Assembly: GCA_964343705.1 (NCBI GenBank)
Contig: CAYFJX010000002.1
Coordinates: 2,873 to 26,872, forward strand
Length of the DNA stretch: 24,000 nucleotides
Source: an uncultured Methanosarcinales archaeon
GTDB taxonomy: Archaea > Nanobdellota > Nanobdellia > Woesearchaeales > UBA12501
Direction: 5' to 3'
Shown: positions 2,413 through 13,851 of the stretch, in pieces
Layout: each line of letters opens with the position of its first letter
Position numbering within the stretch: position 1 is the stretch's first letter
Position numbers and translations under genes: made by a program
The notes under the pieces: model-generated
The model's database searches: none
Told to the model about the DNA's origin: nothing
The model's input: the letters and a program-made list of their open reading frames with translations, nothing else

Positions 2413-3003
2413 TCAGATCTTCTCTTTTAATTTTAATTCAAGAACAAGGTTTTCCACTTTTTTTAACTCATATTTTATACCATCAAACTTTCGGCGTAAA
2501 TCCCCATTACGCAGTTCAAACTGAATCAGTTCATCATACAACTGAGCAATAAATTCGCGGATAGCAACTGCATCTTGATAATTTTCTTTGATGGCACTAT
2601 TAGTTGCGCGCCTCATAAGCTCGCCAATAAGATCGCACAAACCTGCAAGATAGTTTTCAACATCAACCTGTAGCTCTTCAGCTGTTGGAAGACTTTTGTC
2701 AAACACAAAAGCCAAGTATGCTGCTGCTTCGACATATTCTTGTTCTGCTACTCGAGCAAGACCAATATGGCACAAACCTGGATTCTTTTGTATGAGTTGG
2801 CGTAGTGCTGTAATATTTGCAACAAGCTCTTTATGTGCAGCTTGTGCTCGTTTTTGGTCATTGCAGTGTACAGCCGTAATAACTGTTTTTGAGCTGCGTA
2901 TTGTTTCTCGACTTTTTTGTATTACTTCTTCTCGGCGTTCTTCAAAGCAATGTAATTGCTCACGAAGTTCTGCAAAGTCTTTTGAGTTGATCAGATTAAC
3001 CAT
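2413..3003 (-). CDS. translin-family protein
   Basis: All-helical ~196-aa protein. The segment ENYLAGLCDLIGELMRRA matches the translin/TRAX signature as I remember it. Start moved to the ATG at 3003 (MVNLINSK), which has a minus-strand TATA (GTTTTTATATC, 3025-3035) ~27 nt upstream. Confidence 0.75.
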   Translation of the reverse strand: MVNLINSKDFAELREQLHCFEERREEVIQKSRETIRSSKTVITAVHCNDQKRAQAAHKELVANITALRQLIQKNPGLCHIGLARVAEQEYVEAAAYLAFVFDKSLPTAEELQVDVENYLAGLCDLIGELMRRATNSAIKENYQDAVAIREFIAQLYDELIQFELRNGDLRRKFDGIKYELKKVENLVLELKLKEKI

Positions 3004-12566: not shown

Positions 12567-12745
12567 CACTGGACATCTATTTTACCGAAATGCTTCCGGA
12601 ATTGATTTCTAAAACAGTGTTACAGCTCTTCTCGTCATCATTCGAAAATTCTCCGCAGGGATTATTCCGTCCACTAGACACAATTTTCGTCAAAGACGAA
12701 AATGTGCATCTGAGCTCTGCTCAGATTGCACTGGACATACGTCCG
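12567..12745 (+). other. hairpin-dense noncoding segment B1, bounded by a 10-bp direct repeat
   Basis: CACTGGACAT occurs at 12567-12576 and 12729-12738. Hairpins are TTTTCGTC-AAA-GACGAAAA (12684-12702) and GTGCATCTGAGC-TCT-GCTCAGATTGCAC (12704-12731). The second shares the 13-mer TGAGCTCTGCTCA with a hairpin apex in element A (11460-11472). Confidence 0.35.
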
Positions 12746-12752
12746 CGACAAA

Positions 12753-12761
12753 CTTATATAG
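12753..12761 (+). promoter_or_regulatory. candidate TATA box for the downstream structured RNA / LAGLIDADG transcript
   Basis: CTTATATAG is preceded by an A-rich BRE-like GACAAA. The predicted start is near 12781-12785. Caveat: TATAG...CTATA can also pair as a small hairpin. Confidence 0.3.
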
Positions 12762-12780
12762 CTCGAAAACTATACGGAAA

Positions 12781-13003
12781 GTAATGAAAAAAAGAAAGAT
12801 AACCCTTAGGCAAGGGAAAAAGGTTCAGACCCTAAGAATAAAGAACATCTTGAAATATTTAAATCTTTCGCAATGCCTGGGTAACCCTAATCAGGTAAGG
12901 GAGGGAGGTTCAGACCCTCTCAGTCAGCAATGACTTCGGGGTTCAAATCTCTTTAGAGTGCTAAGCTCTTGGGGTGAAACTCCCCGCTCAGGCGCATTCC
13001 CAT
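12781..13003 (+). ncRNA. candidate structured RNA / long structured leader B (unassigned)
   Basis: No credible ORF. Two ~35-40-nt repeat units (12801-12836 and 12883-12923) share the exact 13-mer AGGTTCAGACCCT presented in hairpin loops. GNRA-type hairpins are GG-GTAA-CC (12879-12886) and AGTCA-GCAA-TGACT (12922-12935). A T-arm-like GGGGTTCAAATCTCT lies at 12938-12952. Includes the bulged hairpin 12955-12999. Confidence 0.4.
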
Positions 13004-13042
13004 CACCCTCATGTTTTTACAGGGTGAAAAACATGAGAGGTG
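13004..13042 (+). promoter_or_regulatory. 15-bp hairpin sequestering the SD of the LAGLIDADG gene
   Basis: CACCCTCATGTTTTT (13004-13018) pairs with AAAAACATGAGAGGTG (13027-13042) with one small bulge. The 3' arm contains the GAGGTG of the SD, located 4-7 nt before the ATGs at 13047 and 13050. Confidence 0.45.
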
Positions 13043-13046
13043 ATTG

Positions 13047-13739
13047 ATGATGGAATTTGACATATCTAAGATAAAGTTTAGTTATATGGATAGGAGAAGA
13101 GGGGTAGTTATACCTACCCAAGTTTCTGAAAGTTTAGCTGAATTTGTAGGCATACTTATAGGAGATGGGTATTTACATAGCAATAAGAAAAAGTATACAA
13201 TTGGTGTTGTTGGAAGCCCAAAAACTGATGTTGAATACTTTACTAGAGTACAAAATCTGATTCAAGATACTTTTGGCTTAACAACAAAGATACATGAGAG
13301 GGAAAGAGCTCTACGATTAGTTTTTGGATCAAAAGCCATTTTCACTTTCTTAACAAACACAGTAGGATTAGCGCATGGGCCTAAGAAAGGAGAAGCAGTA
13401 ACAATTCCTAAATCAATCCTACTTAAGGAACTTACTACAAACGCTGTACTCAGAGGAATATTTGATACAGATGGAAGCATTTTCTTCTCTGACAAAAAAG
13501 GTTCTCCGAATTACCCCACAATAGAACTTACCACTACAAGTGGGGTATTAGCAACACAGATCGCTGAAATTCTAGCGAAAAAAGGATACAGGGTTCGCCC
13601 AAGAAAACACAGACCAGGCAATAATTTAGTCATAAACAGAGTGGCACTATATGGGAAGAAAAATATGAAAAGATGGTTTGAAGAGATTGGCTTTACAAAT
13701 CCCATAAAACAACGAAAACTAATCCAAGCAGTGATATAA
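13047..13739 (+). CDS. LAGLIDADG-family homing endonuclease, double-motif monomeric type
   Basis: Two LAGLIDADG motifs are present: LAEFVGILIGDGYL and AVLRGIFDTDGSIF. The ~230-aa size fits a single-chain enzyme. The track start at 13044 is TTG. The ATGs at 13047/13050 follow SD GAGGTGA. Confidence 0.9.
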   Translation: MMEFDISKIKFSYMDRRRGVVIPTQVSESLAEFVGILIGDGYLHSNKKKYTIGVVGSPKTDVEYFTRVQNLIQDTFGLTTKIHERERALRLVFGSKAIFTFLTNTVGLAHGPKKGEAVTIPKSILLKELTTNAVLRGIFDTDGSIFFSDKKGSPNYPTIELTTTSGVLATQIAEILAKKGYRVRPRKHRPGNNLVINRVALYGKKNMKRWFEEIGFTNPIKQRKLIQAVI

Positions 13740-13751
13740 AAAAAGGAAAAG

Positions 13752-13851
13752 TGGGAATGCAGGGATTTGAACCCTGGACATCCAGATCTTCAGTATCGCC
13801 TGCAAGACAGTGCCTTGCATCTGGCGCTCTCCCAGGCTGAGCTACATTCCC
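13752..13851 (-). tRNA. tRNA-Phe (anticodon GAA) with a 26-nt intron at a non-canonical position (~31/32)
   Basis: Minus strand reads GGGAATG-TA-GCTC-AGCCTGGGA-GAGC-G-CCAGA-[TGCAAGGCACTGTCTTGCAGGCGATA]-CTGAAGA-TCTGG-ATGTC-CAGGG-TTCAAAT-CCCTG-CATTCCC-A. The cloverleaf is perfect once 13794-13819 is removed. It has U33, G37 and A73, and no encoded CCA. Confidence 0.85.

Follow-up and report, generated by a model that had tools for sequence, protein, structure and literature searches.

A predicted leucine tRNA gene with a T-loop intron, and a likely decayed copy of it, upstream of a LAGLIDADG endonuclease-family gene in a DPANN archaeon

We examined a 24,000-nucleotide (nt) stretch of an uncultured archaeal genome (contig CAYFJX010000002.1, positions 2,873 to 26,872; referred to throughout as the window), and within it the region around 12781-13003, which lies between a promoter-like module and the open reading frame (ORF) of a LAGLIDADG endonuclease-family gene. 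An earlier note had described the region as a structured non-coding RNA gene on the plus strand with tRNA-like features and a plausible promoter upstream, and this description holds up. The note also took the region for a single RNA of about 220 nt, possibly of a novel kind. The region instead comprises a tRNA gene at 12875-12994 and a separate decayed copy of it at 12794-12870. The gene, which is very probably functional, is predicted to specify a class II tRNA on the plus strand with anticodon CAG (leucine, reading CUG), split in the T-loop at position 59/60 by a 33-nt archaeal bulge-helix-bulge (BHB) intron at 12948-12980. What the region holds is of a familiar type, namely an archaeal tRNA gene whose BHB intron is non-canonical, together with a pseudo-copy; it is not an RNase P RNA, a riboswitch or a new RNA class. 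As the note stated, there is no credible ORF: only short ones of at most 49 amino acids (aa) overlap the region, and no evidence supports the one at 12784-12933 (49 aa), which overlaps the upstream copy and the 5' part of the tRNA gene. The parts of the gene are as follows:

12875-12947, plus strand: exon 1 of tRNA-Leu(CAG), tRNA positions 1-59
in exon 1: acceptor 5' strand GCCUGGG, followed by U8 at position 8
in exon 1: D arm with stem CCCU/AGGG and loop AAUCAGGUA, including A14, G18G19 and A21
in exon 1: anticodon arm GGAGG-UUCAGAC-CCUCU, with U33 and the anticodon CAG at 12911-12913
in exon 1: long variable arm AGUCA-GCAA-UGACU
at the end of exon 1: T-stem 5' strand CGGGG and T-loop bases UUCAAA
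12948-12980, plus strand: BHB intron of 33 nt, tRNA position 59/60, T-loop
12981-12994, plus strand: exon 2, with U60, T-stem 3' strand CCCCG, acceptor 3' strand CUCAGGC and discriminator G73 (12994)

Three clues point to a disrupted tRNA at this position: the T-arm-like string GGGGUUCAAAU; a 7-bp helix, GCCUGGG/CUCAGGC, which closes a four-way junction in the minimum free energy (MFE) fold; and a neighbouring tRNA on the minus strand whose intron hides it from ARAGORN. When the intron is removed in silico, ARAGORN identifies an 88-nt tRNA-Leu(cag) whose cloverleaf includes a long variable arm; on the unspliced sequence it calls no tRNA. All of the near-universal tRNA bases are readable in the spliced form of 12875-12994 (U8, A14, G18G19, A21, U33, G53, U54-U55-C56, A58 and C61). 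The spliced form also has the 7-bp acceptor stem, the D arm, anticodon and T stems of 5 bp that each carry a 7-nt loop, and the combination of a long variable arm with a leucine anticodon. CCA is not encoded in the gene.

The BHB can be read directly. The T-stem (CGGGG/CCCCG) forms the outer helix, two 3-nt bulges on opposite strands (AAU and ACU) flank a central 4-bp helix (UUCA/UGAA), and a 4-bp inner helix (CUCU/GGGG) completes the hBHBh' arrangement. The archaeal splicing endonuclease cleaves after the second nucleotide of each bulge, a rule that yields position 37/38 for canonical introns. Applied here, it sets the intron limits at 12948-12980 and the intron position at 59/60, with a predicted splice junction of ...GGGGUUCAAA joined to UCCCCG... 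(12947 to 12981). Deletion of the intron restores the T-loop UUCAAAU and the 5-bp T stem. Non-canonical BHB introns are said to have been described in tRNA genes of Thermoproteales, Nanoarchaeum and ARMAN/Micrarchaeota by Marck and Grosjean in 2003, Sugahara and colleagues in 2008 and Fujishima and colleagues in 2011. One of the non-canonical intron sites documented for archaea is 59/60 (PMC4090602), and Crenarchaeota, Nanoarchaeota and ARMAN are rich sources of such introns (PMC4090602, PMC4033280). We did not identify a Pfam match to a tRNA-splicing endonuclease among the scanned ORFs of the window (a few short ORFs lie outside that scan, which covered the window only). Non-canonical or multiple introns also occur in the window tRNA-Phe gene and in those of related loci, so the lineage evidently processes introns of this sort.

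Orthologues were sought by scanning metagenome contigs for the anticodon loop and the T-arm, with a variable arm of free length between them. Two orthologous loci were recovered (L091 and L092 in our numbering of related loci), and both align with the window tRNA over its full length. They share the acceptor GCCGGCG/CGCCGGC, the anticodon loop UUCAGAC, a long variable arm and the same T-arm as the window gene. Their introns (27 and 29 nt, compared with 33 nt in the window) have an identical position, the same UUCA/UGAA helix, and 3-nt bulges AAU and AUU. The BHB is kept in all three sequences with divergent intron interiors: the inner helices are ACCU/AGGU in L091, AUC/GGU in L092 and CUCU/GGGG in the window, and their first pair is C-G or A-U among the orthologues. 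Centroid folds of the T-arm-plus-intron segments of L091 and L092 reproduce the BHB.

In an alignment of the three sequences, 98.8% of the 86 cells in 29 pairs are standard pairs. Changes on both sides were found in six pairs, in the acceptor, anticodon and variable stems and the inner helix of the intron; the variable arm of L091, for example, shows a compensatory A-U to C-G change. None of 500 shuffles matched the pairing and covariation values, and when partners were slid by 1-3 columns only 37-53% of cells were paired.

Several observations weigh against a functional tRNA gene. In the ARAGORN parse, the linker between the acceptor and the D-stem has 3 nt rather than 2, and the Rfam tRNA model scores nothing for the unspliced gene at E<=10. 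A strong TATA box is absent at the usual distance from the mature 5' end, so that a promoter about 120 nt upstream of that end has to be assumed (start expected near 12783-12788, leader of about 90 nt). The covariation comes from three sequences only, with a structure derived from one of them. Finally, the discriminator is G rather than the A73 of leucine tRNAs. Nevertheless, the agreement of the three sequences is what a functional gene predicts, despite the small sample, and we predict that the gene is expressed, spliced and aminoacylated.

The discriminator is G in all three orthologues (window 12994; L091 2035; L092 7852). A73 is the leucine identity determinant in Bacteria, Eukarya and Archaea, and G73 is an antideterminant for the leucyl-tRNA synthetase (LeuRS) of H. 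volcanii and alone converts human tRNA-Leu to a serine acceptor (PMC9976931). G73 prompted us to consider reassignment of CUG to serine, and this was rejected. CTG codons are in normal use (63 of 6704), and CUG is read as leucine here because CTG codons sit at conserved leucine positions of CTP synthase and glycyl-tRNA synthetase (GlyRS). In CTP synthase, four of five CTG codons fall at invariant leucine and the other in an L/M/F column (three PDB homologues). In GlyRS, three of seven match leucine in the aligned PDB homologue(s), the rest are in variable columns and none matches serine. Partial charging of tRNA(CAG) with serine in this DPANN lineage, giving ambiguous CUG decoding as in CTG-clade yeasts, is accordingly judged very unlikely. 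Tolerance of G73 by LeuRS is the simplest reading. That the LeuRS of this lineage has dropped the otherwise universal A73 requirement has, in our estimation, about an even chance of being correct, and is much more probable than serine charging. No reliable leucine or serine tRNAs were found among the fetched loci for comparison of the discriminator with other DPANN class II tRNAs. The conserved G73 on a class II tRNA with a leucine anticodon is a small, concrete lead on the aminoacylation identity rules of DPANN archaea.

The other features near the gene are:

12794-12870, plus strand: degenerate partial tRNA duplicate (unit 1), with clear similarity only over 12799-12833, equivalent to tRNA positions ~8-43 (D and anticodon arms)
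12729-12761, plus strand: promoter module, with the proximal CACTGGACA at 12729-12737, a GCG block and the TATA box CTTATATAG at 12753-12761
12567-12575 and 12672-12680: further copies of CACTGGACA
13002-13044, plus strand: hairpin between the tRNA gene and the ORF, with a U5 tract (13014-13018) in the 5' arm and the Shine-Dalgarno-like GAGAGGUGA of the LAGLIDADG gene in the 3' arm
13050-13739, plus strand: LAGLIDADG_3 endonuclease-family gene, 229 aa (Pfam PF14528, E = 1.7e-16)
13752-13851, minus strand: tRNA-Phe(GAA), convergent with the LAGLIDADG gene (Rfam tRNA model, 55.2 bits; missed by ARAGORN)

Unit 1 is most likely a decayed, non-functional partial tandem duplicate of the tRNA-Leu(CAG) gene, placed in its 5' leader. 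The 13-mer AGGTTCAGACCCT is present in exactly two copies in the window (12821-12833 and 12906-12918; 0.03 expected, and none of 100 shuffles gave two or more), and the repeat extends to 26 nt with 85% identity (12808-12833 and 12893-12918). A gapped local alignment of the two units has 37 columns and a score of 43, compared with 15.7 +/- 2.7 for 500 shuffles, whose maximum was 28; none reached 43. On the 3' side of the 13-mer, unit 1 is collinear with the tRNA (e.g., UUUAAAUCU and UUCAAAUCU), a match that is not significant alone (271 of 1000 shuffles reach it). The ends of unit 1 pair as a perfect 7-bp helix, GAAAGAU/AUCUUUC, which may be due to chance. Unit 1 was considered as another working tRNA and rejected: ARAGORN does not call it, only 3 bp of the anticodon stem are left, a T arm is missing and the fold is no better than those of shuffles (z = -1.3). 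No counterpart of unit 1 was found upstream of the L091 tRNA or in the LAGLIDADG loci examined (L092 carries just 12 nt upstream and is uninformative).

The promoter module includes one of the four occurrences of CACTGGACA in the window, where 0.7 are expected. The same order of elements, CACTGGACA (often in tandem), then GCG, then a TATA-like box, was identified upstream of LAGLIDADG homologues in L005, L006, L009 and L094-L097, and an inverted pair of CACTGGACA occurs in place of that order in L093. In the fetched loci, the motif is found almost exclusively within 350 nt upstream of the gene and in forward orientation. The TATA box that had been assigned to the region as its own is indeed present at 12753-12761; it belongs to this module, which is shared upstream of LAGLIDADG genes in related DPANN archaea. 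The promoter is probably real. The distance from TATA to ATG is ~25-75 nt in L006, L009 and L094-L096, ~210 nt in L005 and ~290 nt in the window. Because the spacing is short in most relatives and ~290 nt here, we view the tRNA-Leu gene and its pseudo-copy as a lineage-specific insertion between promoter and ORF. Among the loci compared, a tRNA between the promoter module and the LAGLIDADG ORF occurs only in the window.

Other features of this upstream region were also noted. An operator-like CACTGGACA, either in the tandem form CACTGGACACTGGACA or as an inverted pair and with GCG and a TATA-like box after it, precedes the LAGLIDADG gene in about 25 of 77 loci and is almost confined to that position. 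It may be the binding site of a regulator, conceivably the LAGLIDADG protein itself. We also considered whether CACTGGACA is copied from the T-arm of tRNA-Phe. The motif is similar to the complement of the window tRNA-Phe and not to the tRNA-Phe of L006, and we regard the similarity as coincidence. At 12633-12698, there is an imperfect inverted repeat (CGTCATCATTCGAAAATT...AATTTTCGTCAAAGACG) around the second CACTAGACA motif. The minus strand of this interval was rejected as a C/D-box small RNA: the SNORD38 match (21.9 bits compared with a gathering threshold of 44, E = 0.3) has the wrong box order and is probably due to chance. In L005, the conserved TATA and the start codon of the LAGLIDADG gene are ~210 nt apart, and this long leader (2795-3000) contains long near-perfect hairpins of sequence unrelated to the window element, and no tRNA was recognised in it.

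A path from gene to mature tRNA can be proposed. For the precursor, the probable promoter is the conserved TATA box at 12753-12761, with a weaker AT-rich box closer to the gene as the alternative. EndA, the splicing endonuclease, would cleave within the 3-nt bulges on either side of the UUCA/UGAA helix, a ligase would join the exons to form the T-loop UUCAAAU, and the ends would then be trimmed. The hairpin downstream of the gene (13002-13044) is an inverted repeat with an MFE of -21.5 kcal/mol (z = -3.8; none of 200 shuffles is as stable). A run of five U residues is a terminator-like signal in archaea. The U5 tract and the hairpin would probably end most transcripts, and in read-through RNA the hairpin would mask the ribosome-binding site of the LAGLIDADG gene, leading to poor translation.

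Most of the structural details in the earlier note can be reassigned within this gene. The region does have many helices, and the plus strand folds modestly better than shuffled sequences (-65 kcal/mol, z = -2.2) whereas the minus strand does not (z = +0.5). Both copies of the 13-mer were confirmed, but AGGUUCAGA, which had been drawn as a GGG/CCC-closed loop of 9 nt, consists of the 7-nt anticodon loop UUCAGAC and, before it, the two final bases of a stem of 5-6 bp. Both hairpins with GNRA caps can be drawn: the GCAA hairpin is the variable arm, but the GUAA hairpin (GGGUAACCC) is spurious, as it reaches from the acceptor stem across positions 8-9 into the D-stem. The T-arm-like block is a real T-arm (12939-12952 is 93% complementary over 14 nt to the plus-strand copy of the neighbouring tRNA T-arm), and GGGGUUCAAAUCUCU comprises the T-stem, the T-loop and the first intron bases. 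Three strings had been likened to the conserved regions (CR) of RNase P RNA. The CR-II-like string AUCAGGUAAGGG is an exact 12-mer of the M1 RNA of E. coli, so the likeness is literal; in this gene it is the D-loop and the 3' strand of the D-stem of the tRNA. The CR-III-like string (GAAACUCCCC..CAGGC) proves to be the 3' end of the intron and the 3' strands of the T-stem and acceptor, and the CR-I-like string (CGGAAAGUAAUG) is at or before the expected transcription start.

These reassignments bear on the idea that the region encodes an RNase P RNA of divergent or minimal form, or else an independent RNA resembling the specificity domain, whose CR-II-like and CR-III-like blocks would dock the tRNA elbow. 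The 12-nt identity to M1 RNA follows a GNRA-capped hairpin in both RNAs, GGGGUGAAACUCCCC is loosely like the M1 stretch GGUAAACUCCACCC, and no RNase P RNA was found elsewhere in the window. However, the family consensus conserves no more of the 12-mer than GGUAAGGG. We searched Rfam (4227 families) with the window at gathering thresholds, and with 1.8 kb and 361 nt at E<=10. The archaeal, bacterial A and B, nuclear and type T RNase P models gave no match at E<=10, even on the 361 nt with lax filters, and none reached its gathering threshold anywhere in the window; E. coli rnpB, as a positive control, scored 318.6 bits with the same tool. The hypothesis of a divergent RNase P RNA finds no backing in these searches. 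No other Rfam family or cis-regulatory model matches the element, and the 361-nt search yielded only chance matches of microRNA type at E>=1. As the note had already reported, the P4 pseudoknot, CR-IV and CR-V cannot be drawn; the 3' side runs directly into the hairpin and the LAGLIDADG ORF. Every CR-like block has a place in the tRNA cloverleaf and BHB intron, backed by orthologues and compensatory changes, and an RNase P RNA of any form is exceedingly improbable here.

In a second reading, the region would be the 5' leader of the LAGLIDADG mRNA and would regulate in cis like a riboswitch or a T-box, with a hairpin that masks the ribosome-binding site and controls translation. The element does lie between the conserved LAGLIDADG promoter and the ORF, the Shine-Dalgarno sequence is within a very stable hairpin, and the L005 leader is also long (~210 nt) and rich in hairpins. 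The leader is short in L006, L009 and L094-L096, though, and the motif is near the gene in all other motif-bearing loci except L005. In 89 loci, neither blastn-short nor nhmmer with 12760-13046 found relatives of the element outside the contig of the window, and a string scan for the anticodon loop and T-loop with visual inspection found none in L093-L097. By reading, no LAGLIDADG gene was noticed downstream of the L091 and L092 tRNAs, whose flanks were neither translated nor searched. The best-structured part of the region is fully explained as tRNA. The suggestion of a long regulatory leader is therefore true in position only, in that a tRNA lies between the LAGLIDADG promoter and ORF, and regulation by this element is very unlikely. 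We consider it just as unlikely that the whole region is dead DNA consisting of two decayed tRNA pseudogenes left by duplication or an endonuclease-associated rearrangement. Unit 1 is clearly degenerate, and the downstream copy has the atypical G73, the 3-nt linker and no strong TATA at the usual distance. Yet no universal tRNA base is missing from this copy, its stems are intact and its BHB is exact; compensatory substitutions preserve these features in two diverged orthologues, which share G73 as well; and the CTG codons used at conserved leucine sites need a decoder. We conclude that a functional tRNA-Leu(CAG) gene with a decayed neighbour best accounts for the region.

The LAGLIDADG gene downstream keeps both catalytic-motif aspartates (D39 and D141, invariant in the alignment of homologues). 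A database search identified 54 homologues, the few named ones of which are from DPANN archaea (Woesearchaeota, Nanoarchaeota), and a genome scan identified 231 related stretches, mostly in DPANN metagenome-assembled genomes. The homologue in L005 is among the closest, with 55% protein identity. In L005, L006/L007 and L009, the LAGLIDADG gene is upstream of, and convergent with, genes for an OB-fold protein and a class II aminoacyl-tRNA synthetase (GlyRS in the window). Also encoded in the window, at 563-2344 on the minus strand, is an aspartyl-tRNA synthetase of bacterial type with a GAD insertion domain (PF02938), notable in an archaeal, DPANN-like contig.

The tRNA-Phe(GAA) gene of the window contains a 26-nt non-canonical intron, at 30/31 by our BHB reading, with central helix CGCC/GGCG, bulges AGA and AUA, and inner helix UGCAAG/CUUGCA. 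In the closest relatives, tRNA-Phe genes with two or more introns (in the D-loop and anticodon-stem region) were identified on the minus strand at L005 3735-3890, L006 3690-3830, L009 3630-3800 and L012 3150-3295; those of L005, L006 and L009 were undetected by ARAGORN and at Rfam gathering thresholds. In four genomes, labelled Nanoarchaeota, Aenigmatarchaeota, Undinarchaeota and Desulfurococcales, a LAGLIDADG homologue lies in sense inside a 630-662-nt intron of tRNA-Phe(GAA) (L033 1023-1750, L046 2447-3159, L058 2456-3160 and L077 2397-3133). These introns occupy the same anticodon-stem site (30/31, again by our reading) as the 26-nt mini-intron of the window. Of the 77 loci scanned, 40 have a strict signature of the tRNA-Phe(GAA) anticodon loop and T-loop no more than about 300 nt from the LAGLIDADG gene, on one strand or the other. 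In a limited literature search, we found no account of archaeal tRNA introns that contain a homing-endonuclease gene. The surroundings, among them a conserved operator-like motif and a LAGLIDADG family associated with tRNA-Phe genes and in some cases encoded within their intron, are arguably more interesting than the tRNA-Leu finding.

The main value of the tRNA-Leu finding is in annotation. Neither ARAGORN nor the Rfam tRNA model detects the unspliced gene: a T-loop intron together with a long variable arm conceals a real tRNA, and fragments of a tRNA hidden in this way can mimic pieces of a larger ribozyme. The tRNA complements of DPANN archaea are routinely reported as incomplete, and cases like tRNA-Leu(CAG) account for part of the gap.

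Comparison with known systems places the locus as follows. The specificity domain of RNase P RNA (Rfam RF00010, RF00373 and relatives) has in common with it the 12-nt identity of AUCAGGUAAGGG after a GNRA hairpin and a GUGAAACUCC-type string. Unlike RNase P RNA, the region has no covariance-model match, catalytic domain or P4, and these strings belong to the tRNA D-arm and to the intron and T-stem; the resemblance is best treated as coincidence. Unit 1 is similar to the tRNA pseudogenes and partial duplications that occur beside tRNA genes, as it reproduces the D arm and the anticodon arm with its loop and has lost the cloverleaf stems. It differs from others of this kind in being only 85 nt upstream of its parent in direct orientation, and from attachment-site (att) duplications in that it flanks no kilobase-scale integrated element. 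The tRNA-Ser(CAG) of CTG-clade yeasts is likewise class II, with anticodon CAG and G73, but here CTG codons occur at invariant leucine positions of CTP synthase and GlyRS and there is no sign of reassignment.

The closest parallel is with archaeal tRNA genes that carry non-canonical BHB introns. As in those, the intron is defined solely by the BHB, is spliced by protein (a prediction in this case) and lies outside the canonical 37/38 site, at the listed position 59/60. Such genes are similarly invisible to standard tRNA finders, the host is of DPANN type, and neighbouring tRNAs have non-canonical or multiple introns. To our knowledge, a DPANN tRNA-Leu(CAG) with a 59/60 intron has not been individually described. 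Compared with known tRNAs of this class, the gene is distinguished by its G discriminator, by the decayed partial duplicate upstream and by its location inside the leader of a LAGLIDADG gene.

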